From an uncultured Bacteroidia bacterium (GTDB lineage: Bacteria > Bacteroidota > Bacteroidia > Bacteroidales > UBA932), in NCBI GenBank assembly GCA_902785825.1, contig CACZZZ010000010.1, positions 9,262-73,261 on the forward strand: a stretch of DNA of 64,000 nucleotides, given 5' to 3'. Under the pieces are notes generated by a model, which was given only the letters and a program-made list of their open reading frames with translations, did no database searches and was not told the origin of the DNA. A program made the translations under genes and the position numbers. Each line of letters opens with the position of its first letter. The first letter of the stretch is position 1. Of the stretch, positions 11,467-56,531 are shown piece after piece.

Positions 11467-11625
11467 ATGAAGAAGTACACTTGCGATGTTTGCGGGTACG
11501 AGTATGATCCCGCAGTCGGCGATCCGGACAACGGAATCGCCCCCGGAACAGCTTTTGAGGATCTTCCCGAGGATTGGGTCTGCCCCCTCTGCGGAGTCGG
11601 CAAAGACCAGTTCTCCGAGGCCTGA
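11467..11625 (+). CDS. Rubredoxin (52 aa; below the ORF-track length cutoff)
   Basis: Hand translation: [52 protein letters not shown]. Two CxxC pairs (CDVC, CPLC) and a typical rubredoxin core. ATG lies 2 nt after the purL stop. Confidence 0.85.
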
Positions 11626-11662
11626 CAGGCTGAAAATGCCGAAGTACAAAGAGTATAACGTG

Positions 11663-13219
11663 ATGAGGAATCTGTTTCTTACAAATACACTGACAAAGAA
11701 CAAGGAACTGTTTGTTCCAGTACATGAGGGGCATGTGGGGATGTATGTCTGCGGACCGACCGTTTATGGCGACGCCCACCTTGGCCACGCCCGACCGGGT
11801 GTCACCTATGACGTGCTGTTTAAGCTTCTCCGCCATCTTGGCTATAAGGTCCGTTATGTCCGGAATATCACCGACGTGGGTCATCTTGAGCATGACGCGG
11901 ACGAAGGAGAGGACAAGATTTCAAAAAAGGCCAGGCTGGAGCAGCTGGAGCCCATGGAAGTCGTCCAGAACTACACGTTCCGCTACCATGAGGCCATGAG
12001 GCTTCTCAACGTCGCCCCGCCCTCCATCGAGCCTCGGGCTTCCGGGCATATTATCGAGCAGATTGAGACCATAAAGAAGATTCTTGAGGCCGGATATGCC
12101 TATATCTCAAATGGTTCCGTCTATTTCGACGTTCAGAAATATTCCGAAAAATACCACTATGGAATTCTTTCAGGGCGCAATTTAGACGACACGCTTGAGG
12201 GGACCAGGGCTCTTGACGGACAAAGCGACAAAAAGGCTCCGTACGATTTCGCCCTTTGGAAGAAGGCCGAGCCTGAGCACATTATGCATTGGCCGAGCCC
12301 CTGGAGCGAGGGATTCCCCGGATGGCACCTTGAGTGTTCAGTGATGGGTGAGAAATATCTCGGCGAGGAGTTCGACATCCACGGTGGCGGAATGGATCTT
12401 ATGTTCCCTCATCATGAGTGTGAGATCGCTCAGAATGTGGCCTGGAGAGGCACCAGAGGTGTTCGCTATTGGGTTCATAACAATATGATCACCATCAATG
12501 GCCAGAAGATGGGTAAGTCTCTCGGGAACTTCATAACCCTTCCTGAGCTGTTCTCGGGTAACCACCCGAAGCTCGAGAAGGCTTATTCCCCGATGACGGT
12601 CCGGTTCTTTATCCTCCAGGCTCACTACCGTGGCACTCTCGACTTCAGCAACGAAGCCCTGCAAGCTTCCGAAAAGGCCCTCAAAAGGGTCCTGCAAGCC
12701 TATAAGGACCTGGTCGCCTTGGCCAAGGCACACGGTGTCATCCTTAGCGAAGCGAAGGATCTCCCCTACGGAGAGCTGTACTCCTTCATCGCTCCTGACT
12801 CCTGTCCTGCCGACTCTCCGGAAATCAAAGCCATATTCGACGGAGTTTATGATGCCCTTTGCGACGATCTCAACACCCCGATCGCTCTTTCGCACATCTT
12901 TGAGGCGGTGAGAATCATCAATACAGCGAAGGCGGGTCCTTCAGGGGCCGGGAATCTGTCAGAAGGTGACATCAAGACCTTGCTCCAGATATTCGACGAC
13001 ATCGTGTTCGGCGTCCTCGGCTTGAAAGACGAGAGTGCCGGTGACGGCGGCAAAAGTCAGGAAGTCATTTCGGGACTGATGAATATGGTCCTTGAGGAGC
13101 GGGCCAAAGCCAAGGCAGCAAAAGACTGGGCTCAAAGCGACTCTATCCGGGATCATCTCAAAGCCCTCGGCATCACCGTCAAAGACACCAAGGACGGCGC
13201 CGAATGGACGCTTGAATAA
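11663..13219 (+). CDS. cysS: Cysteine--tRNA ligase
   Basis: Start trimmed to the ATG at 11663 ([19 protein letters not shown]...). HIGH-type motif [15 protein letters not shown] and KMSKS-type KMGKSLGN. The track ORF from 11486 reads through the rubredoxin gene in another frame. 11636 is an alternative start. Confidence 0.9.
12735..12764 (+). repeat. GNA-triloop hairpin repeat element inside cysS, translated as [10 protein letters not shown]
   Basis: GTGTCATCCTTAGCGAAGCGAAGGATCTCC. Hairpin 12740-12760 = ATCCTTAGC-GAA-GCGAAGGAT (9-position stem, one A-G mismatch, GAA loop). About 25/31 nt identical to the element at 15926-15955. Confidence 0.65.
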
Positions 13220-13224
13220 GCTTC

Positions 13225-16224
13225 CTATTTCACAATGACAATATTAGGTACGACCCGGGCTCCCTCGTGGTCGTACTTTTTATTATCATAGGGATAATTG
13301 ATTATACCTGTCTTGTCTGTCCAGAGAGTCGAGGATCCGCCACCATCGAGGTTGATGGCGTCTTTAAGCCCAAGGATACGGCAAAGAGTAGCGAGCTCAG
13401 GAATAGTCATTCCATCGGCATTACCGGGGAATCTTCCATCCACGACCGCCATGTAAACCATGCCGTCACCATCCCAGCCCATGAAGGTCCTGGGATGACG
13501 CATCGTAAAGAAAGAAGCGTCAGGGAAAGCGGGGACCTTGCCTTCTTTTATGAGAATAGGCCCGGAAGCAAGGCACTGCTTGTAGTCAAGCCTGTAATGC
13601 TCAGTCATGGTACTGTCATAAGGGAATATCTCGAGTTGATGTCCACCCTCGTCTTTAACTGCCAGGACTCCGTTGGAGCGCTGCAGTTCTGAGGGAGGAG
13701 TCTGTCCAAGCACTTCCCCATCGATACAGAAAAAAGTGTGTGGAATCAGTCGCCTCATATTGAAATAACTGCCGTTCAATCCTATACGAGCCCCCTCACG
13801 CATCGCGAGAGTGTCAGTTGTCGAAGAACTCTCACCCGGGGCATGGACAAAAGATGTGGACATCTTTGATGCGGGGTACCTGACCAAGCTGATGCTCTGG
13901 GTTGTGCCATGGAATGGGAATTGGGCATGAGTTGTCTGGGCTCCATCCCCGATGTCGTTCCACTGCCACCCGGCGGCATTCCATTCCTCTAAATCAGAAG
14001 GGCAAACAGCTCCCCATTCCTTGTTGGGCAAGCTCCCCATCTCAAGAATCAACGTGCCGCCAGCCAGGATCTGGTCATGAGTGATCCAGGGGCCATTAAG
14101 CGGTTCGCCGTTCAATGTGGCGCTCTGGATGTATTTATTATCATCTGAGGCTTCCTTCGCCACAATCTTGAAGACATTGCCATTTGACAAAGTCAAGCTT
14201 GACTCAGTGAACACCGGGCTGCCGATGGTATAGACCGGTTCACCGGGAGTGACAGGATAGAACCCCAAGGAAGAGAAGACAACGAAAGATGTAAGTCCAC
14301 CGCCATCCTCATCGCCCGGAATTCCCATAAGATCGTCCCTGAACCACGTGTCGAGCATCTGCCGGACCCGCTTCTGCGTCTTCCAAGGAGCTCCAGCGTA
14401 ATTGTAGAGATATGGGATATGGAGTGACGGCTCATTTGCCATCGAGAACTGGCCGATATTGCCGGTGTGATCAGGCATCTTGCTGTAGAAAACGTTCTTT
14501 GAGTGGCTCAAAGGGGTCGCGAACATCCTATCCAGTTCCTCACTGAAACGCACCGGGCCTCCCATTAAAGCCACCAAGTCAGGAATATTGTGCTGCACGT
14601 CCCAGCGATACACCCAGCCTGTGTTCTCATCGTAAGAATCCCTCATGCCGGGACCACCCTGGAACTCATAATCAAAGTTCGGAATAAACTGTCCGTCAGC
14701 GTCTTTCGGATGGAAGAACAAGGTCTCAGGATTGAAAAGCTTGCGGTAATTCAATGACCAATCCTTGTAGAATTCCGCGGCTTCCTTCTCCCCCGCCGCC
14801 TCGGCAAGTTTTGAAAGCGCCCAACTGTCGTATGCCGTTCCAAGACTAACCGCCACAGGCTGACGCTTCTCCCAACCGTTGACATTCGGGTCGGTCTCAC
14901 TCTCCCCTTCCCGGAGCGCCGGCATATAACCATGTTCCCAATAGAACCTGTCCAGTTCCCCCGCAGGATTGCCGCACCAAGGGACTAACGTCTTCTCCCT
15001 TAGCGCCTTCCGTCCGGCCTCGTATGCTGCCTTGACATCCACTTTCAACCCTTTGGAACATGCGTCGGCGAAAGTCGGAATCCCGTGGTTGCTGTTCATC
15101 CTGCGGGAATCTCCGCTGACCTCAGGGAACGTCGGCATCCAGCCGGTTCCCATCTGATCCGCCATCCTCAGAAAAGAAGCCAGGATATTCTCCTCAACCG
15201 GTACATCCATAAGAGTCCTCAGCGGATGGGCTGCCCTGTAAGTGTCCCAGATCCAGTCATCAGTGTAGAACGGCACTCCCCCATCCTCATGGACAGAGTT
15301 GTCGAAAGCGCTCCAATAGCGACCGTCCTCGCTCATGAGAATCGGTCTTTCAAAGGTACGGTAATATGAAGTGTAGAATACTTTCTTCCTCTTTTCGGGT
15401 CCCTTCACGGCTATCCTCCCAAGGGTCTGATTCCAGATCTTTCGTCCCTCAGCGGCAAGCGCATCCACGTCATAATCAGTGATCTCCCCGCGGAGATTCG
15501 CCTGGGCCTGCTCTTCGCTGATGAAAGAGACCCCGTAACGGAGACTCACGGATGGCTTGTCAAAGACAAGCGACACCCAGCTGTTTTCATCTTTGACAAA
15601 GGATTCCGCCAGCACAGGCTTGTTCTCCGGCTCCATATAGACATAGACCTTTGTCTCCCCCTCTACCGTCTGCCAGCCGGAAAGGGCCGTTCCGTCCCAA
15701 TCAACGGAACCATCTGAGGTTGAAAGGGTTATCTGTAAGGGAGAGTCTCCTTTAAGGGAATAAATTGCCGAATGGTGGGAAAGCGCGTACCTCGCCTTGA
15801 CGGCCCCGTCGGACAGGGTCACCTCGAATGAATATGGAGTGATCCGCTCGTTGTCATAAGAGACCGGGACAACCGGACTGTCATTCCGGTCAGCTTCCCG
15901 GCTGTCATTCTGAGCGGACTCCCGGCTGTCATTCTGAGCGGAGCGAAGAATCTCCGTCGTGACCGACAATTTGAACGCCGAGCGCTCACGGTGGTTAGTC
16001 ACTATCACAGGAAGGCCGTTAAGGTACTCCGAAGTGTAGTCCGAGCGCTCAGGATAGACCCTCAGCATAGAATTCGGCAACTGCACGGTCGGAAATGTCG
16101 GCACAAGCAAATGGCTGATATTGCCGGCGTAGGGATTGACATAATCGACAGGTTCCAGCTTTGGATCGCCACAAGCGAAAACAAAAAGGGCTGCCAGCAA
16201 TGCGGGAAAAACATGTTTTCTCAT
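13225..16224 (-). CDS. GH92 alpha-mannosidase fused to a C-terminal phosphodiester glycosidase (NAGPA/DUF2233-like) domain; lipoprotein
   Basis: Start trimmed to MRKHVFPALLAALFVFAC (lipobox). GH92 motifs: WIWDTYRAAHPL, NEPSLHIPYLYNYAGAPWKTQ, GDEDGGGLTSFVVFSSLGFYPVTPG. The last ~250 aa (13225-13985) show GLNGSYFNM ... NLDGGGSSTLW, typical of the phosphodiester glycosidase family. Confidence 0.75.
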   Translation of the reverse strand: MRKHVFPALLAALFVFACGDPKLEPVDYVNPYAGNISHLLVPTFPTVQLPNSMLRVYPERSDYTSEYLNGLPVIVTNHRERSAFKLSVTTEILRSAQNDSRESAQNDSREADRNDSPVVPVSYDNERITPYSFEVTLSDGAVKARYALSHHSAIYSLKGDSPLQITLSTSDGSVDWDGTALSGWQTVEGETKVYVYMEPENKPVLAESFVKDENSWVSLVFDKPSVSLRYGVSFISEEQAQANLRGEITDYDVDALAAEGRKIWNQTLGRIAVKGPEKRKKVFYTSYYRTFERPILMSEDGRYWSAFDNSVHEDGGVPFYTDDWIWDTYRAAHPLRTLMDVPVEENILASFLRMADQMGTGWMPTFPEVSGDSRRMNSNHGIPTFADACSKGLKVDVKAAYEAGRKALREKTLVPWCGNPAGELDRFYWEHGYMPALREGESETDPNVNGWEKRQPVAVSLGTAYDSWALSKLAEAAGEKEAAEFYKDWSLNYRKLFNPETLFFHPKDADGQFIPNFDYEFQGGPGMRDSYDENTGWVYRWDVQHNIPDLVALMGGPVRFSEELDRMFATPLSHSKNVFYSKMPDHTGNIGQFSMANEPSLHIPYLYNYAGAPWKTQKRVRQMLDTWFRDDLMGIPGDEDGGGLTSFVVFSSLGFYPVTPGEPVYTIGSPVFTESSLTLSNGNVFKIVAKEASDDNKYIQSATLNGEPLNGPWITHDQILAGGTLILEMGSLPNKEWGAVCPSDLEEWNAAGWQWNDIGDGAQTTHAQFPFHGTTQSISLVRYPASKMSTSFVHAPGESSSTTDTLAMREGARIGLNGSYFNMRRLIPHTFFCIDGEVLGQTPPSELQRSNGVLAVKDEGGHQLEIFPYDSTMTEHYRLDYKQCLASGPILIKEGKVPAFPDASFFTMRHPRTFMGWDGDGMVYMAVVDGRFPGNADGMTIPELATLCRILGLKDAINLDGGGSSTLWTDKTGIINYPYDNKKYDHEGARVVPNIVIVK
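15873..15955 (+). repeat. Three tandem 24-nt units ending in a GNA-triloop hairpin element, in frame inside the GH92 gene
   Basis: Units 15873-15896, 15897-15920 and 15921-15944. The last two match at 22/24; the first is degenerate (16/24). They encode SAQNDSRE-SAQNDSRE-ADRNDSPV on the minus strand. The terminal hairpin 15931-15951 is ATTCTGAGC-GGA-GCGAAGAAT. Confidence 0.8.
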
Positions 16225-16261
16225 CTTGAACGGGGATAAATGGTTCTCTTTGTAAAGATAC

Positions 16262-16302
16262 AAAAAAACAAGGAGAGACCGCGATTTGTCAGCCTCTCCT
16301 TG
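16262..16302 (-). terminator. Rho-independent terminator after the BACON/OB lipoprotein gene
   Basis: Perfect 9-bp stem CAAGGAGAG (16269-16277) / CTCTCCTTG (16294-16302). On the minus strand it is followed by TTTTTTTG (plus-strand A-run 16262-16268). Confidence 0.8.
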
Positions 16303-29907: not shown

Positions 29908-30363
29908 ATGGCGGCAAAGAAAGAACATAGAATAGAGATAAGGAACAAGAAGGCCTCATTCGACTATGAGTTCCTTGAGACTTATGAGGCGGGGATCGTG
30001 CTGGTCGGGACGGAGATCAAATCCATCCGGATGGGCAAGGTCTCCCTGGTGGACTCGTTCTGCTATTTTGTTGGGAACGAGCTCTTTGTCAAGGGAATGA
30101 ATGTCGCCCAGTATTTTTGGGGATCATGGGGCCAGCATGAGCCGATGAGAGATCGTAAACTCCTGCTGACAAAGCGGGAGCTCCGCCACCTCCACCAAGC
30201 CGTCAAGGAGAAAGGTCTTACTATCGTGTCTGTGAAGCTGTTCATCAATGATGAGGGTTATGCCAAACTGGTCATAGCGCTCGCAAAGGGTAAGAAGTCT
30301 TTCGACAAGAGGGCCTCAATCAAGGAAAAGGATATCCGACGGGAGATGGAGAGGGGCGATTAA
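29908..30363 (+). CDS. smpB: SsrA-binding protein
   Basis: 151 aa. [29 protein letters not shown], and a C-terminal basic tail. Confidence 0.9.
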
Positions 30364-30364
30364 T

Positions 30365-31519
30365 ATGGCAAGGAACCGTCAGAACAAGCTTCGGGAGGCG
30401 ATTCCCATCCCTCCCCCGGCTCCGCTTCCGGATCCGGAAGTCATTGACGTGCAGTCCATTCTTGACGAATATCTCTCAGGCAATATCGACCTCATCGTCG
30501 TTCTCGGCCCCACCGCCTCGGGAAAAACCCGCTACGCCGTTCGCCTTGCTCACAGCTTCGCGCGTTTGTATCACCCCCCCTATCCCCCCGGCTTGTCACT
30601 TGATTCTACGGCATACACGGCCGGTGGAAGTGTCCCCTCCGCAACCGTGGCCACCCTCGGCCACGTAAGAGGGGGGACCGCCGACGAAGTCGGTGGTGGG
30701 GCCGAGCGAAGCGAGGCGTTGTCGGAGGGGACAGCTTCCACGGCCGTAGTTGCAGAGATTATTTCTGCGGACAGCAGACAGATATATCGCGACATGACGA
30801 TCGGGACGGGGAAGGATCTGGAGGAGTACGGTGATGTGCCATATCACCTGATCGACATCGTGCCGGCGGGGACCAGATTTGACCTATACCAGTGGCAGGA
30901 AGCCTTTGAGAAGGCTTACAAAGACATCAGGGAAAGAGGCCGGATCCCGATCCTGTGCGGAGGCACCGGTCTTTACATAGAGGCCGCGACTTGCGGATAT
31001 TCCTTGCCCCAAGTTCCACCGGACGAGGAACTTCGGGCCGAATTGGAACAGTACCCTATCGAAGAACTGATAAAGAGACTCGCCGACCTCGGACCTCTTC
31101 CCCCTGAAGGAGTCCTCCAAAGCAAGAGGAGGGTGATCAGGGCGCTGGAAGTAGCTCTGTATGAGAAAGATCACCCGGTACGGAAAAGCGGATATCTTCC
31201 CAAAAAACCATATTACATCGGCACCCTCGTGGACCGTGAGGAAAGGAACGCCCGCATAGATTCCCGTCTTGACGCGAGGCTTCAAAACGGCCTTGTTGAA
31301 GAGGTAAAGGGCCTGCTGGACAGCGGCATACGAGCGGAAGACCTGATGTACTACGGTCTTGAATATAAATTCGTGACCCAGTATGTGCTGGGAATCCTGA
31401 GTTACGAGGAGATGAGGCTCCTTCTGGGAAATGCCATCCACCAGTTTGCCAAAAGGCAGATGACCTGGTTCCGGGGCATGGAAAAAGACGGGGTAAAAAT
31501 CCATTGGACAAACGTTTAA
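30365..31519 (+). CDS. miaA: tRNA dimethylallyltransferase carrying a 64-codon in-frame insertion
   Basis: P-loop GPTASGKT. EIISADSRQIYRDMTIGTGK, PYHLIDI, GGTGLY, and C-terminal QFAKRQMTWFR. About 35 extra N-terminal residues make the true start uncertain (a GTG at V29 is possible). Confidence 0.85.
   Translation: MARNRQNKLREAIPIPPPAPLPDPEVIDVQSILDEYLSGNIDLIVVLGPTASGKTRYAVRLAHSFARLYHPPYPPGLSLDSTAYTAGGSVPSATVATLGHVRGGTADEVGGGAERSEALSEGTASTAVVAEIISADSRQIYRDMTIGTGKDLEEYGDVPYHLIDIVPAGTRFDLYQWQEAFEKAYKDIRERGRIPILCGGTGLYIEAATCGYSLPQVPPDEELRAELEQYPIEELIKRLADLGPLPPEGVLQSKRRVIRALEVALYEKDHPVRKSGYLPKKPYYIGTLVDREERNARIDSRLDARLQNGLVEEVKGLLDSGIRAEDLMYYGLEYKFVTQYVLGILSYEEMRLLLGNAIHQFAKRQMTWFRGMEKDGVKIHWTNV
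30560..30751 (+). repeat. GC-rich structured palindromic insertion inside miaA (RPE/MITE-like)
   Basis: 192 nt between LAHSF and AEIISADSRQ. Outer inverted repeat 30617-30645 / 30718-30747 (28 pairs, three 1-nt bulges). It encloses hairpins 30646-30665, 30677-30697 (GAA loop) and 30701-30717 (GCCGAGC-GAA-GCGAGGC). Also contains C7, C6 and G6 runs. Confidence 0.7.
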
Positions 31520-49576: not shown

Positions 49577-51439
49577 TTATTCACCAACCATAGGGACCCA
49601 AACCTTCATCTTCCCGGCTTCACGATTGTCCCATGAGTAATAAGGAATGTAATTGAGAGTCTGATCGCCTACAGAGGCAGTGATCCCCACAATGCCGCCG
49701 AGCTTTCCGGCATCGAATGAGATGTCAAACTTGGCGTCTTCCGCGATTCTCAAATCATCGAAGCCTTCCTTATTGTCGGCCTCCTCGACACAATACACGA
49801 GCGGACCTCTCTGGACAGCCCTTTTGCCGACATCTTCCTTGACCCTCGGATCAGCGGCGACAACCTTGACCGGCATGTCCAGATCCAGGGTAATGATATC
49901 GCCATCCTTCCACTTGCGGCCGATCACGAGATAACCCTTCTCAACTTCAGGATTCAAAGACTCACCGTTAACAGCCACCTTGTAGCTCTCACACCACCCG
50001 GGAACGCGCATGCGGATCTGGGTATTGAGTGAGCCCTTGACTCCGACCTTGAGGGCGACAGCCCCCTTCCATGGATATTCAGTCTCCTGAGTGAGTGTGA
50101 CTTCCTTCTTTCCCACCTTGAGGTCCGCGGTGTTACCCATGTAGAGGTTCACCCAGATGGCATCTTCTGAGACTCCATAAATATAGTTCCCGATGGAGGG
50201 GAGGAAACGGCAGATCTGACTCGGGCAGCAGGCGGTGCCGTACCAAGGCTTGCGATGGTGGGTTCCCAAAGACTCCAACGGATTGACATAGAAGAACACG
50301 CTGCCGTCCAATGAGATACCAGCCAAAGCCCCATTGTACATCGAACGCTCCATAACGTCAGCGAACTTGCTGTCCCCGGTAAACTGATTCATCCTCCAGT
50401 TCCAATAGACCATACCCACTGAGGCGCAGGTCTCGCAATAGGCGCTCAGGTTCGGAAGATCATAGTCCTCGGTGAAACCCTCGTTGCTGCGGCTCTGGCC
50501 GATTCCACCGGTCAAATACATGTTCCTCAAAACGACATCGTCCCACAGGCGGTTCAAGGCATCGATATAGCCCTGGTCATGAGTGTAGGCGGCCACATCG
50601 GCCATACCGCAATAGAGATACATGGCACGTACGGCGTGGCCGGCGATCTCGCTCATCTCGCGGACAGGCTTGTCATCCTGGTGATACGCATCGTCCCACC
50701 TCTTGAGAGGAACTCCGTTACCACCAAGGCCCCGCCCCCTCTCGTTGAGGAGCCACTCGGAGAAATCGAGATACTTCTTCTCGCCTGTCGCCTGGTAAAG
50801 CTTTACAAGAGCGAGCTCTATCTCCTCATGGCCAGGCACCCAGTCACGTTTGCCGGGGCCAAAGACGGTCATCATGTGGTCAGCCATCTTGACGCAGACA
50901 TCCAGTAACTTGCGTTTACCCGTCACATTGAAATAGGCGACTCCAGCCTCGATCATGTGGCCGGCGCAATACATCTCGTGGGCATCCATCCTCGTCCAGC
51001 GATCATCATTCTCAGCAAGGGTGAACGCGGTGTTGAGATAGCCATTCTCCTCCTGGGCTGCGGCGAATTTGTCTATCCATTCGTCGCACTTAGCCTCCAG
51101 GACAGGATCAGGGTTGTTCTGGAGGGAATAGGCCATTCCCTCAAGTGCCTTGTACACATCAGAGTCGTCATATACCTTACCTTCATGCTGTCCGACAAGT
51201 TTTTGGGCTGCTTTCTCGAAATTACGAATACGGCCTGTCTGGTTCTCTATCTGGTCTATGCAAACCTTGAGAGTGACATCCTTGTGGCTCTTGAGCCTCG
51301 GGGTCCAAAAGCCATCATTGATCTTCACGTCAGAGAAATTGACAGGCGTGATCAACTTGGTGGTGGAGGTCTCCTCACGCTTCCCACAGGAAGGAAGGAT
51401 GAGAGCCATCAACACAATAGATAGGATATATTTTTTCAT
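49577..51439 (-). CDS. GH127 (DUF1680) beta-L-arabinofuranosidase-family enzyme, paralogue A; lipoprotein
   Basis: Start trimmed to MKKYILSIVLMALILPSC. Contains YCETCASVGM and GTACCPSQICR, the Glu/Cys zinc and nucleophile motifs of GH127. Confidence 0.8.
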   Translation of the reverse strand: MKKYILSIVLMALILPSCGKREETSTTKLITPVNFSDVKINDGFWTPRLKSHKDVTLKVCIDQIENQTGRIRNFEKAAQKLVGQHEGKVYDDSDVYKALEGMAYSLQNNPDPVLEAKCDEWIDKFAAAQEENGYLNTAFTLAENDDRWTRMDAHEMYCAGHMIEAGVAYFNVTGKRKLLDVCVKMADHMMTVFGPGKRDWVPGHEEIELALVKLYQATGEKKYLDFSEWLLNERGRGLGGNGVPLKRWDDAYHQDDKPVREMSEIAGHAVRAMYLYCGMADVAAYTHDQGYIDALNRLWDDVVLRNMYLTGGIGQSRSNEGFTEDYDLPNLSAYCETCASVGMVYWNWRMNQFTGDSKFADVMERSMYNGALAGISLDGSVFFYVNPLESLGTHHRKPWYGTACCPSQICRFLPSIGNYIYGVSEDAIWVNLYMGNTADLKVGKKEVTLTQETEYPWKGAVALKVGVKGSLNTQIRMRVPGWCESYKVAVNGESLNPEVEKGYLVIGRKWKDGDIITLDLDMPVKVVAADPRVKEDVGKRAVQRGPLVYCVEEADNKEGFDDLRIAEDAKFDISFDAGKLGGIVGITASVGDQTLNYIPYYSWDNREAGKMKVWVPMVGE

Positions 51440-54674: not shown

Positions 54675-56531
54675 TTAATCGGCAAGAGGGACCCAAACCT
54701 TCATCTTCCCGGCCTCACGGTTATCCCAGGAATAGTAAGGAATGTAATTGAGAGTCTGATCGCCGACATGGGCTGTGATCTCCATTATTCCACGGAGCTT
54801 GTCAGCCTTGAAAGTGGTGTCGAACTTGGCGTTCTCAGCGATCCTGAGAGCATCAAAATCGACACTATTGTCAGCCTCTTCGATACAGTACACGAGCGGG
54901 CCTCTCTGGACAGCCCTCATTCCTTCGTCTTCCTTGACCCTGGGGTCAGCGGCGACGACCTTGACAGGCATATCCATCTGGAGGTCGACAAAGTCCCCAT
55001 CCTTCCACTTGCGGTCTATGACGGCATAACCTTTCTCGATCACAGGTTCGATCACTTCGTCGTTCACAGAGATAGTGTAGTTCTCGCACCAACCTGGGAT
55101 GCGGAGACGGATCTGGGTTTTGACAGAGCCCTTAGTCCCAACCTCGAGTCTCATGTAGTCTTTCCAAGGATATTCCGTCTTCTGGGTGAGGGTGACAGTC
55201 TTTTTACCGACTTTGACCTCAGCGGTGTTACCCATGTAAAGGTTGACCCAGATGGCGTTGTCAGACACTCCATAGATGTAGTTTCCGATCGAAGGAAGGA
55301 AGCGGCAAATCTGGCTCGGGCAGCAGGCACAGCCGTACCAAGCCTGGCGATGGTGATTGCCGACAGACTCCAAAGGATTGACATAGAAGAACTTGTCTCC
55401 CTTGAGAGATATTCCCGCAAGAGCGCCGTTGTACATGGAGCGCTCCATGACATCAGCGTACTTGCTATCCCCGGTGAACTGGTTCATTCTCCAGTTCCAC
55501 AGGACCATACCCACGGAGGCGCAAGTCTCGCAATAGGCGGTGAGGTTCGGGAGGGAATAGTCATTGGTAAAACCTTCGTTGCTGGCACTCTGGCCAATGC
55601 CTCCGGTGATGTACATGTTCCTCAACACGACATCATCCCAAAGACGGTTCAACGCGTCGATATACCCTTGGTCACCGGTGTAGGCGGCGACATCGGCCAT
55701 TCCGCAATACAGATACATGGAGCGCACGGCATGGCCGGATATGTCTGACATCTCCCGCACGGGGACCTCGTCCTGATAATACTTGACCGGCCAAGGCCTG
55801 TCGATGAGCTTGCCGTAAGTGCCGTGGCCATGGCCTCTCTCGTCGAGAAGCCACTGGGCGAAGTCAAGGTACTTCTTCTCTCCGGTGACCTGGTAGAGTT
55901 TCACGAGTGCGAGCTCGATCTCCTCATGGCCGGGAACCCAATCGCGCTTACCTGGGCCGAAGACGGTCATCATGTGGTCCGCCATCCTGATGCAGACATC
56001 CAGCAGCTTGCGTTTGCCGGTCACATTGTAGTACGCCACTCCGGCCTCGATCATATGGCCGGCGCAGTACATCTCATGCTTGTCCATGTTGTCCCAACGC
56101 TTGTCCAGGCCAGTCAGAGTGTAGAACGTGTTGATATAACCATCCTCCTGCTGCGCCGCGGCGAACTTGTCAATCCACTCGTCGCACTTGGCCTCAAGCA
56201 CTGGATCGGGATTATTCTGGAGCGAATAAGCCATGCCCTCGAGCGCCTTGTACACATCGGAGTCATCGAAAAATATTCCGGAATGCTCACCCTCACCTTT
56301 CGCCGCATTCTCGAAATTGCGGATACGGCCGGTCTGGTTCTCAATCTGGTCAATGCACACATTGAGAGTCACATCCTTATGGCTCTGAAGCCTGGGGGTC
56401 CAGAATCCGTCATCGATCTTGACCTCTGAGAACTTAACCGGGGTGATCATCTTCATCACAGCCTCTTTCTTCTCCCCGCAAGAGGAAAGGATAAGGGCCG
56501 CGACGGAAAGAAAAATGATTGATCTTCTCAT
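54675..56531 (-). CDS. GH127 (DUF1680) beta-L-arabinofuranosidase-family enzyme, paralogue B; lipoprotein
   Basis: 618 aa. Signal ALILSSC. YCETCASVGM and GCACCPSQICR. Very similar to 49577-51439. Confidence 0.8.
   Translation of the reverse strand: MRRSIIFLSVAALILSSCGEKKEAVMKMITPVKFSEVKIDDGFWTPRLQSHKDVTLNVCIDQIENQTGRIRNFENAAKGEGEHSGIFFDDSDVYKALEGMAYSLQNNPDPVLEAKCDEWIDKFAAAQQEDGYINTFYTLTGLDKRWDNMDKHEMYCAGHMIEAGVAYYNVTGKRKLLDVCIRMADHMMTVFGPGKRDWVPGHEEIELALVKLYQVTGEKKYLDFAQWLLDERGHGHGTYGKLIDRPWPVKYYQDEVPVREMSDISGHAVRSMYLYCGMADVAAYTGDQGYIDALNRLWDDVVLRNMYITGGIGQSASNEGFTNDYSLPNLTAYCETCASVGMVLWNWRMNQFTGDSKYADVMERSMYNGALAGISLKGDKFFYVNPLESVGNHHRQAWYGCACCPSQICRFLPSIGNYIYGVSDNAIWVNLYMGNTAEVKVGKKTVTLTQKTEYPWKDYMRLEVGTKGSVKTQIRLRIPGWCENYTISVNDEVIEPVIEKGYAVIDRKWKDGDFVDLQMDMPVKVVAADPRVKEDEGMRAVQRGPLVYCIEEADNSVDFDALRIAENAKFDTTFKADKLRGIMEITAHVGDQTLNYIPYYSWDNREAGKMKVWVPLAD

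Follow-up and report, generated by a model that had tools for sequence, protein, structure and literature searches.

The window, by which we mean the whole 64-kb stretch of DNA analysed here, carries miaA, the gene for tRNA dimethylallyltransferase, between smpB (upstream) and purE (downstream), a neighbourhood that is the same on related contigs. Its product matches MiaA chains in the PDB (E = 1e-38) and has the P-loop GxTxxGK[ST] (GPTASGKT, residues 48-55), followed by the IPP-transferase domain (IPPT, PF01715, residues 139-371, E = 1e-56 in Pfam). An in-frame insert of 192 nt, proposed in an earlier note on this DNA, is confirmed by structure alignment, motif spacing and base composition. 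The alignment with the solved MiaA structures 2qgn and 3d3q covers residues 43-65 and restarts at residue 130, and residues 66-129 are therefore inserted; homologues have one to three residues at this position, between the P-loop helix and the next strand. The spacing from GKT to SADSRQ is 78 residues in the window's MiaA, against the usual 15 in 80 metagenomic MiaA loci, and the GC content of the insert (0.66-0.71) stands above that of its surroundings (about 0.5-0.58).

Table 1. Features of miaA and its insert, in window coordinates
Feature	Position	Strand	Description and basis
miaA ORF (tRNA dimethylallyltransferase)	30365..31519	+	384 aa; hosts the insert; ORF list, Pfam, PDB homologues
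Whole insert	30560..30751	+	192 nt, 64 codons, stop-free, aa 66-129; gap against solved MiaA structures and empty-site orthologues P0020/L001 and P0014/L206
Remnant of second inserted element	30563..30616	+	30563-30591, C-rich left part; 30592-30616, linker to the junction
Outer inverted repeat, 5' arm	30617..30645	.	Locus-specific outer stem; RNA and DNA folds, inverted repeat I2
Family-core profile match	30641..30720	+	nhmmer E = 1.1e-15; sole match in the window
Hairpin 1 (CGTGGCC-ACCCTC-GGCCACG)	30646..30665	.	Most conserved module of the family; inside the search pattern matching at least 119 genome stretches
GAGGG	30669..30673	.	Complement of the hairpin-1 loop CCCTC (30654-30658); candidate pseudoknot or alternative helix
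Hairpin 2 (ACCGCCGAC-GAA-GTCGGTGGT)	30677..30697	.	RNA fold and family alignment
Hairpin 3 (GCC-GA-GCGAAGC-GA-GGC)	30701..30717	.	GCGAAGC mini-hairpin type; RNA fold and family alignment
Outer inverted repeat, 3' arm	30718..30747	.	RNA and DNA folds, inverted repeat I2

An AlphaFold model is confident in the MiaA fold outside the insert and assigns pLDDT below 50 to residues 72-126. It places the insert at the surface, between helix 54-68 and strand 130-134, and predicts that the translated segment would be a disordered loop of about 64 residues. We infer that the insert is translated. The peptide SVPSATVATLGHVR spans the insert in the predicted translation.

As RNA, the 192 nt have a minimum-free-energy fold of -94.1 kcal/mol (z = -3.2), equalled by none of 200 shuffles. 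Over the 3' 131 nt of the insert this fold is a four-way junction made of the outer stem and the three hairpins of Table 1, and it reproduces the drawing of the earlier note, position for position. Folded as DNA, the segment 30610-30751 has z = -6.5, with hairpins 1 and 3 drawn differently in that minimum-energy structure. The first 57 nt (30560-30616) lie outside the junction and hold the remnant of a second element, B. Comparison with L002 and L003 (states X+B+A) shows that relatives hold 93 extra bases between 30591 and 30592, after CCGG, and L004 and L005 carry the complete composite as its reverse complement (83% identity over 264 nt). We did not find B as a dispersed repeat: within 1.9 Mb of fetched loci, its copies occur only in MiaA loci.

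The MiaA site is polymorphic at the exact position of the insert. Alignment of orthologues reveals an empty site in a 95%-identical MiaA (P0020/L001) and in P0014/L206. Most metagenomic MiaA genes are without the insert, and about 40% of the 120 closest MiaA clusters have 35-95 extra residues there. The states seen at the site are empty, the element (A), A reverse-complemented, B, B reversed, tandem combinations and partial deletions, all of them in frame. The peptide encoded by reverse-complemented A equals that of the window's minus-strand ORF 30580..30795. When empty and filled sites are compared (L206 with L205, L001 with L002), there is no clean direct duplication; a short GGCCG, itself palindromic, stands at both ends.

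The earlier note had proposed a search for further copies, and related genomes contain them. A pattern built on the hairpin-1 core matches at least 119 stretches in GTDB genomes, nearly all of them Bacteroidales MAGs, with several copies per genome and, among the matches listed, up to at least four in one MAG. An nhmmer profile of the family core, built from 40 copies, gives 124 matches in the 1.92 Mb of fetched loci. It is these other genomes that show the dispersal. The window's genome, sampled over 64 kb, has one copy: the profile has no other match there at E ≤ 10, and blastn and the profile together yielded no second copy in the window or in the 20-kb flanks of orthologous loci.

Copies lie both within and between genes. 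Sixty-eight of the 119 listed copies are inside open frames that reach at least 150 nt on both sides, and the others, such as the copy in L048, lie between genes. Counting the MiaA-directed loci as well, there are 74 intragenic copies, of which 33 have the same orientation as the gene and 41 the opposite one, and together they occupy all six phases. Pfam recognises at least 24 host gene families, among them TrmB, SpoU/TrmH, TruA, TruB, RibF, UvrA, RNase R, RsmG and MnmA, as well as a MiaB-like enzyme, YggS, shikimate kinase, transporters and others; about one-third of 36 representative host open frames have no Pfam match and may not be genes. A second hot spot is the linker between the FAD_syn and Flavokinase domains of RibF, which may be empty, may hold the element in either orientation or may hold other palindromes. 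In both hosts examined, MiaA and RibF, the insertion sites are compatible with the fold of the host protein. At five loci a 190-nt relative lies at the 3' end of IS1182-like transposase ORFs, and this looks more like a further insertion than like a parent element.

The earlier note had also pointed out that hairpin 3 shares the core GAGCGAAGCGA with the cysS and GH92 elements. Both sites do match with one mismatch, which is statistically weak as evidence of a family: at one mismatch or fewer the window has five occurrences of the core where 1.7 are expected, a number reached in 3 of 100 shuffles. We reject these sites as members; they belong to a different small palindrome, GTCATYCTNAGCGRAGCGAAGRATC. 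That palindrome is also inserted in RibF and in one MiaA.

The family is previously undescribed and is carried by uncultured gut and rumen Bacteroidales; neither Rfam nor the literature searched holds a description of it. An Rfam search gave no match at E ≤ 1 in 30000-31500 of the window and, in eight loci that contain intergenic copies, none that fell on the element. No covariance model of riboswitches or of the twister, pistol, hatchet and hammerhead ribozymes matched. We rejected hammerhead, twister, pistol and HDV-like ribozymes and tRNA-like folds because of their architectures and the Rfam result. We also rejected a phage origin, given that none of 2.9 million viral contigs matches the element.

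Throughout the family, a conserved core of about 75 nt, with three hairpins and a covarying pseudoknot-like pairing, is clamped by a long inverted repeat of 20-34 bp that is different at each locus. Because of this clamp, a four-way junction can form from each DNA strand as well as from the transcript. Covariation, counted by script, is clearest in hairpin 1, where one stem pair is C..G in 86 copies and T..A in 32; there, too, the two strands gain or lose a G-C pair jointly (65 / 60 / 2). The base in the hairpin-1 loop is always complementary to its downstream partner (T/A in 73 and G/C in 54 of 127 unique copies), and the search pattern had permitted all four combinations. RNAalifold, run on a MAFFT alignment of the cores, selects this loop-to-downstream helix and recovers nothing else; hairpins 2 and 3 are missing from its result because their lengths vary. 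The family alignment indicates that both hold their pairing across many differing sequences. Hairpin 2 keeps its structure while its sequence varies, with many different complementary stems at that position, and in other copies it often bears nested extra hairpins. One subfamily has a conserved tandem G-A mismatch in a stem. This mismatch and the covarying pseudoknot-like pairing look like features of a functional structured nucleic acid.

Each locus has its own outer arms, and in orthologous copies these change in pairs. The hypothesis that one arm is host sequence and the other its inverted copy is partly supported. In L107, L004 and L108 the palindrome extends into the host codons CAGCTC or ATC, and L207 retains a single arm; in the comparison of L205 with L206, both arms lie within the insertion.

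In 19 of 22 orthologous pairs the element is better conserved than the flanking coding DNA. The window and L205, for example, are identical over 129 nt of the element and 86-90% identical over the rest of miaA. Neutral junk should diverge faster than this, which points to constraint at the nucleotide level, recent spread or concerted evolution. In 9 of about 22 orthologous pairs the element is flipped. At L136/L146 the flanks are 88% identical and the element is 100% identical yet inverted, and 101 nt are identical between the window and L004 once one of them is inverted. Across lineages, MiaA, UvrA, TrmB, MPI, L136/L146 and other loci each have the element in both orientations at one site. 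Flips were found only between lineages whose flanks differ by 5-20%.

Looking across these results, we consider it probable (roughly 0.7) that the insert is a copy of a selfish palindromic repeat, similar in kind to the Rickettsia palindromic elements (RPEs), which is tolerated in a permissive loop beside the remnant of a second such element. The likeness to RPEs, as palindromic elements in frame in housekeeping genes, had been suggested before and gains support from the many other genes and the intergenic positions that hold copies in related genomes, and from orthologues that have or lack the insert at precisely this site, a 95%-identical empty allele among them.

Under the RPE-like explanation, new copies would arise in and between genes. 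Those that keep the frame in permissive surface loops would be tolerated and would persist, since the GC-rich sequence is open in five of six frames. In MiaA the permissive loop would be that between the P-loop helix and strand beta-2, where the element would be translated. After insertion, the arms may interact via recombination or via template switching during replication. Such interaction could flip the element in place, keep the arms complementary and extend the palindrome into the flank, and it could also delete the element in whole or in part. It would thereby generate the mosaic of empty, filled, inverted and compound alleles. We infer the manner of movement, and also that copies are tolerated rather than useful. 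The copies examined showed neither a transposase nor conserved terminal inverted repeats nor a clean duplication of the target site, so their distribution is the sole basis for proposing movement. The mobiliser might be an HUH enzyme or another enzyme of single strands; none was found.

A bolder proposal, which we put forward tentatively and think unlikely to hold, is that the core is no junk but does the work in a bacterial element of a new class. It would be a conserved pseudoknotted four-way junction, made of RNA or of single-stranded DNA. Fold-back or template-switch synthesis on the target's own flank would create the locus-specific arms and keep them complementary. By flipping in place, such elements would reversibly recode loops in dozens of housekeeping and RNA-modification enzymes. 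Their strong nucleotide conservation, with one element 100% identical where its host gene differs by 10-14%, would then reflect either selection on structure or active homing of each variant to its own site.

Alternatively, the insert could be a functional structured nucleic acid, whether mRNA or folded single-stranded DNA, that is under selection and whose coding location is secondary. It might hold back mRNA decay, make ribosomes pause, be targeted by an RNase or bind a host protein. An RNA-structure role is for us a sub-question; it is compatible with both orientations, because the palindrome folds much alike either way. Conservation of the core above flanking coding DNA argues for selection of this kind, as do the hairpin-1 covariation, the exceptionless pairing of loop and downstream base in the 127 unique copies, and the persistence of hairpins 2 and 3 through many different sequences. 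Template switching in quasi-palindromes can, however, yield paired stem changes without selection, and the changes seen here may stem from that process instead. Most MiaA genes, and one orthologue that is 95% identical, are moreover without the element, its copies in unrelated genes, all six phases and intergenic DNA have no common context, and Rfam is without a matching family. We therefore regard this explanation as quite improbable.

We think it less probable still that the segment is a programmed intragenic inverton, flipped within a population by a site-specific recombinase so as to give two recoded versions of MiaA and of other proteins. The segment is flanked by inverted repeats and has an open reading frame in both orientations, related lineages carry opposite orientations at the same sites, and intragenic invertons, recoding ones included, are documented in Bacteroides (PMC10028968). 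Against this, the flips separate lineages and were not seen inside one population, and in the loci examined no copy has a linked recombinase gene. With arms that are different at each locus, one recombinase would find no shared target in them. Many alleles are empty or partly deleted, and both encoded peptides are of low complexity, with the window's version predicted to be disordered.

A lineage-specific functional domain or loop of MiaA, selected for its amino-acid sequence, would account for an insertion that is always in frame, stop-free and at the surface. This possibility is close to refuted. The earlier note had reasoned that a unique segment conserved at the protein level would speak against a palindromic element; instead, the reverse-complemented DNA at the same site encodes an unrelated peptide. 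In other genes the same core is read in all six phases, the loop is predicted to be disordered, and near-identical orthologues are without it. Palindromes are able to cause misassembly, but an assembly chimera or sequencing artefact has next to no credibility here, as the insert recurs with identical junctions in many independent assemblies (ENA, NCBI, JGI, Logan; cluster P0003 on 13 contigs) and the frame is always preserved.

In-frame 'protein-coding palindromes' have so far been regarded as a peculiarity of Rickettsia. The element described here would add a second case on a large scale, from free-living bacteria that are abundant in gut and rumen, and would imply that selfish hairpin DNA can colonise the permissive loops of core enzymes far more widely. 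It would account for length-variable, low-complexity inserts in MAG proteins, which calls for caution among annotators and structure predictors. The insertions would mark enzyme sites that tolerate large additions and could provide natural strain-level markers. Its unusual traits may expose a novel way of moving or maintaining DNA: the centre is conserved between arms particular to each locus, the element inverts in place, and it is better conserved than the host gene. Bacteroidetes go unmentioned in a 2024 review of prokaryotic MITEs.

Several known systems share features with the family. In integrons, the R''/R' boxes of attC sites (RYYYAAC ... GTTRRRY) lie at the outer base of an imperfect hairpin, beside a cassette ORF. 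Many copies of the Bacteroidales element have AAC...GTT, but at the inner end of the 20-34-bp stem and with no cassette context, and we rejected attC as an identification. Coding palindromes are also found in organelles: GC clusters of yeast mitochondria are GC-rich examples. In mitochondrial genes of Nematomorpha, perfect inverted repeats are embedded in coding genes and translated (PMC6649704). These differ from the element in residing in organelle genomes, in their unrelated sequences and in having no conserved multi-hairpin core reported.

REPs are single hairpins of 20-40 bp that carry a GTAG or CGTC tag and are associated with RAYT transposases (Di Nocera et al. 2013, PMC3733652). Like REP, BIME and REPIN sequences, the Bacteroidales copies are small, GC-rich, multi-copy palindromes, some of them intragenic (notably in repair and RNA-related genes) and often adjacent or nested. 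Their unit, in contrast, is a four-way junction of about 100-135 nt, and no constant terminal tetranucleotide tag was seen among the copies compared. MITEs (Correia/NEMIS, ERIC, Coxiella QMITE1 and others) are recognised by their conserved terminal inverted repeats and target-site duplications, which go back to a parent IS (review PMC10969869). With them the element has in common short non-coding repeats, strong folds, occasional in-frame gene fusions and presence that varies among strains. It departs from them in that the terminal arms vary and the centre is conserved; nor was a clear duplication or parent IS found in the loci compared. A simple cut-and-paste MITE leaves the locus-unique outer arms unexplained.

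The intragenic invertons of Bacteroides switch within populations at single loci, presumably through invertases (Chanin et al., PMC10028968). There, as here, a stretch between inverted repeats is contained entirely in one gene, occurs in both orientations and recodes the protein. The Bacteroidales element differs in flipping between lineages only, and in that what inverts belongs to a multi-copy repeat family whose members are gained and lost as well.

The closest comparison is with RPEs. Accounts of them (Ogata et al. 2000, 2002, as summarised in PMC10969869 and PMC3733652) describe hairpin-forming repeats of about 100-150 bp that are dispersed, both intergenic and in frame in many unrelated housekeeping genes, are tolerated where the protein fold allows and have no known transposase. 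Their hosts are obligate intracellular Alphaproteobacteria, whereas those of the element are free-living gut and rumen Bacteroidales. The Bacteroidales family is moreover GC-rich, has a multi-hairpin core with pseudoknot-like pairing and locus-specific arms, occurs in either orientation and in every one of the six phases, and inverts in place. Sequence homology to RPE-1 to RPE-10 is unlikely, judging from the differences in base composition and host, and the likeness is one of kind: both are multi-copy, hairpin-forming sequences that insert in frame and stop-free into unrelated genes, at sites compatible with the fold of the protein.

The window's miaA gene stands consecutively with smpB and purE, and its product aligns with solved MiaA structures over the P-loop segment (aa 43-65) and then again from aa 130. 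Because those structures skip the region of aa 66-129, with one to three residues where the window protein has 64, and because the spacing from GKT to SADSRQ is 78 residues rather than the usual 15 (80 metagenomic MiaA loci), the insert takes the bounds claimed for it in the earlier note. Its GC content is 0.66-0.71, and as RNA it folds at -94.1 kcal/mol (z = -3.2; 0 shuffles equal). Folding also reproduced the four-way junction that the same note had drawn in the 3' part of the insert, the palindromic repeat we call element A. The DNA of 30610-30751 folds with z = -6.5, again with 0 shuffles equal, and its minimum-energy fold pairs hairpins 1 and 3 differently from the drawn junction.

Coordinates of the features discussed (positions in the window unless a locus is named)
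Feature	Position	Strand	Description
miaA ORF	30365..31519	+	384 aa; Pfam IPPT over aa 139-371, E = 1e-56
Insert in miaA	30560-30751
Element A	30617-30747		3' 131 nt of insert
Outer stem of element A	30617-30645 / 30718-30747		encloses three hairpins; from fold
Hairpin 1	30646-30665		from fold
Hairpin 2	30677-30697		from fold
Hairpin 3	30701-30717		from fold
Element B and C-rich left part (CACCCCCCCTATCCCCCCGG...)	L002 10199-10348; window 30563-30616
Reverse-strand ORF across insert	30580..30795	-	translation SDNASLRSAPPPTSSAVPPLTWPRVATVAEGT
Small in-frame palindrome GTCATCCTTAGCGAAGCGAAGGATCTCC	12738-12770		read VILSEAKDL; within cysS-like ORF 11486..13219, +, 577 aa
CCCGGCTGTCATTCTGAGCGGA repeats	15880-15950		2-3 tandem copies ending GAGCGAAGAATCTCC; within ORF 13225..16263, -, 1012 aa
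Direct repeats D1-D4	49592-51358 and 54687-56453		~1.8 kb each, 77-83% identical, 5,095 nt apart

Searching with the protein gave MiaA sequences by the thousand, of which the 120 nearest (321-419 aa long) were considered and 40 of these aligned. The aligned proteins are nearly identical except at the insertion site, where their states form a mosaic that confirms presence and absence of the insert at this exact point. The site is empty in the MiaA protein clusters P0020 (95% identical), P0014 and P0022 and in the common 325-aa form. Other relatives carry element A in the window's orientation or reverse-complemented, the latter yielding the peptide that the window's minus-strand ORF would encode. 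Further states are element B (a second inserted element) in either direction, combinations in tandem and alleles with partial deletions; every state is in frame. The contig DNA encoding these proteins bears this out: among the fetched loci, the site is empty in L001 and L206, L002 holds X+B+A, and in L004 the whole composite is reverse-complemented (83% identity over 264 nt). The window insert opens with 57 nt left over from the surroundings of B's position; 93 nt are absent after 30591. Within the 1.9 Mb of fetched DNA searched, MiaA loci alone had element B with its C-rich left part. Other inserts occupy this point in more distant MiaA genes of Bacteroidales, several of these inserts being long-stem palindromes (z between -5 and -8); the site is thus a general hot spot.

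Neither the window nor the flanks of the orthologous loci hold a second copy of element A. Its core is 78-80% identical to that of the MiaA insert found in L010/L011, a distant lineage, and equally similar to an element between two genes in L048, and the outer stems of the three differ despite the similar cores. When one genome per GTDB species was scanned with a degenerate 23-24-nt pattern (hairpin 1 and the bases after it), the search for further copies returned at least 119 stretches in other genomes; 0 of 2.9 million viral contigs matched. The matches listed come nearly all from uncultured Bacteroidales of rumen, horse and human gut, and the richest MAGs have at least four copies; 68 of these 119 lie inside open frames extending at least 150 nt on both sides, and miaA hosts just five. 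Across 74 intragenic copies, MiaA-directed loci included, orientation relative to the frame is the same in 33 and opposite in 41, and all six phases are used. Directly downstream of the full element, L127 (~1880-1910) and L153 (~920-950) have a second, partial hairpin-1 module (..CCACCCTCGGCACGTAAGAGGGA.. / ..GCCACCTGCGGCACGGAAGC..), which suggests tandem or nested arrangements.

Pfam recognised the hosts of at least 53 copies, in 24 families: TrmB (8 copies), SpoU/TrmH (5), TruB (4), RibF (4), TruA, UvrA, mannose-6-phosphate isomerase, an RlmI-like methyltransferase, YggS, an aminotransferase, a GltD-like oxidoreductase, RNase R, RsmG, MnmA, a MiaB-like radical-SAM enzyme, shikimate kinase, transporters and others. 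Pfam matched nothing in about one-third of the 36 representative open frames scanned, and these may not be genes. RibF repeats the picture at the MiaA site, its inter-domain linker being empty, occupied by the element in either orientation, or occupied by a different small palindrome. Enzymes of tRNA and rRNA modification or processing are strikingly frequent among hosts (L086-L204): MiaA, TrmB, TrmH/SpoU, TruA, TruB, RlmI-like, RsmG, MnmA, MiaB-like and RNase R. Tolerance in genes of low expression, or targeting, may underlie this. MnmA is expected to have roughly 360 aa; the open frame in L137 (3590-5413, minus strand) has 608 aa with its Pfam domains split far apart, suggesting several separate inserts in one gene.

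Across the family, the outer stem is 20-34 bp long, nearly perfect and different from locus to locus; the innermost 8-12 bp alone follow the subfamily. Hairpin 1 and the bases after it are almost invariant, and where changes are found they come in pairs: 86 copies have C..G as the closing pair and 32 have T..A, and one G-C pair is either present or missing on the two strands at once (65 / 60 / 2). K in the loop and M downstream are complementary without exception (T/A in 73 copies, G/C in 54) in a search that admitted all four combinations. Because of this, the loop CCCKC is able to pair with GMGGG, three or four bases 3' of hairpin 1, a layout that could form an H-type pseudoknot or alternative helix. 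Hairpins 2 and 3 preserve pairing across many different sequences; hairpin 2 frequently contains nested extra hairpins. A tandem G-A mismatch in the stem is retained in one subfamily.

We compared about 22 orthologous pairs of copies (flank identity at least 0.77). Nine were flipped in place, including UvrA L099/L161, TrmB L119/L163, MiaA L107/L108 and L136/L146; the MiaA inversion carries arm asymmetries along. Arms of orthologous copies diverge through paired changes, at least six between RibF L098 and L185, and likewise in the MiaA arm pairs ATAGTCCCCTCC/GGAGGGGACTAT vs ATGGTACCCTCC/GGAGGGTACCAT. In some loci the palindrome extends into host codons (CAGCTC...GAGCTG in L107 and L004, ATC...GAT in L108), and a common allele, L207, retains one arm. 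The element is better conserved than the surrounding coding DNA in 19 of the 22 pairs: the window and L205 agree in all of 129 nt (100% identity), the remaining miaA being 86-90% identical, and between the window and L004 101 nt are 100% identical but inverted, with flanks 95% identical.

AlphaFold, run with the orthologue alignment, confidently predicts the MiaA fold outside the insert and models residues 72-126 (pLDDT 21-35) as unstructured, looping out between helix 54-68 and strand 130-134. Since the two orientations of the same DNA encode unrelated peptides, and copies elsewhere are read in six phases, amino-acid sequence is not what is conserved in the element.

Other repeats occur in these genomes. 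A unit like the palindrome of the cysS-like gene is the insert PLSFRAEPKAESRNL of some RibF orthologues and of the L033 MiaA, and together these appear to belong to a second coding-palindrome family, a smaller one; the CCCGGCTGTCATTCTGAGCGGA repeats contain the same motif, in frame on the minus strand. A larger relative of ~190 nt starts ~40 nt upstream of the pattern match in L100, L115, L162, L190 and L196 and is also present in L096, L097, L114, L154, L177, L187 and L197. It shares hairpin 1 and the pseudoknot-like module, but its hairpins 2 and 3 are long and different, and five loci have it at the 3' terminus of an IS1182-like transposase ORF (...AIAHNIKKMI...). Some of the contigs that carry it are assigned to Firmicutes or an archaeon, perhaps by mis-binning. 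The long direct repeats of the window are probably a paralogous gene pair.

The element is dispersed, in frame, polymorphic, inverted in place and conserved in structure, and the likeness to the Rickettsia palindromic element (RPE) drawn in the earlier note is the best-supported reading: a selfish palindromic repeat that survives in genes if the frame is kept and the loop is permissive. We infer that it moves; at the loci examined, neither an enzyme nor a conserved terminal repeat nor a clean target duplication turned up. Arm-to-arm recombination or template switching could produce the flipping, matched arms, palindrome growth and deletion, and the insert may be translated and merely tolerated. 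Recombination between the arms of A alone does not account for L004, where elements B and A are inverted together as a single block. High nucleotide conservation, pseudoknot-like covariation and locus-specific arms do not fit simple junk and leave room for an element that is functional or mechanistically new, which we consider rather unlikely beside the selfish repeat. A programmed intragenic inverton is possible; the flips, however, were observed solely from one lineage to another. Two further readings, a functional protein domain and an assembly artefact, can in effect be dismissed.

The full-text literature searched, whose coverage is incomplete, yielded no description of such elements in Bacteroidales, and an earlier one may exist; no Rfam family matched the insert. 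RPEs are the closest known kind (Ogata 2000 and 2002, via PMC10969869 and PMC3733652), followed by intragenic REPs, MITEs and intragenic invertons (PMC10028968). MITEs are defined by conserved ends, whereas the ends here are variable; REPs are defined by a tagged single hairpin, whereas the element described here is a four-way junction.
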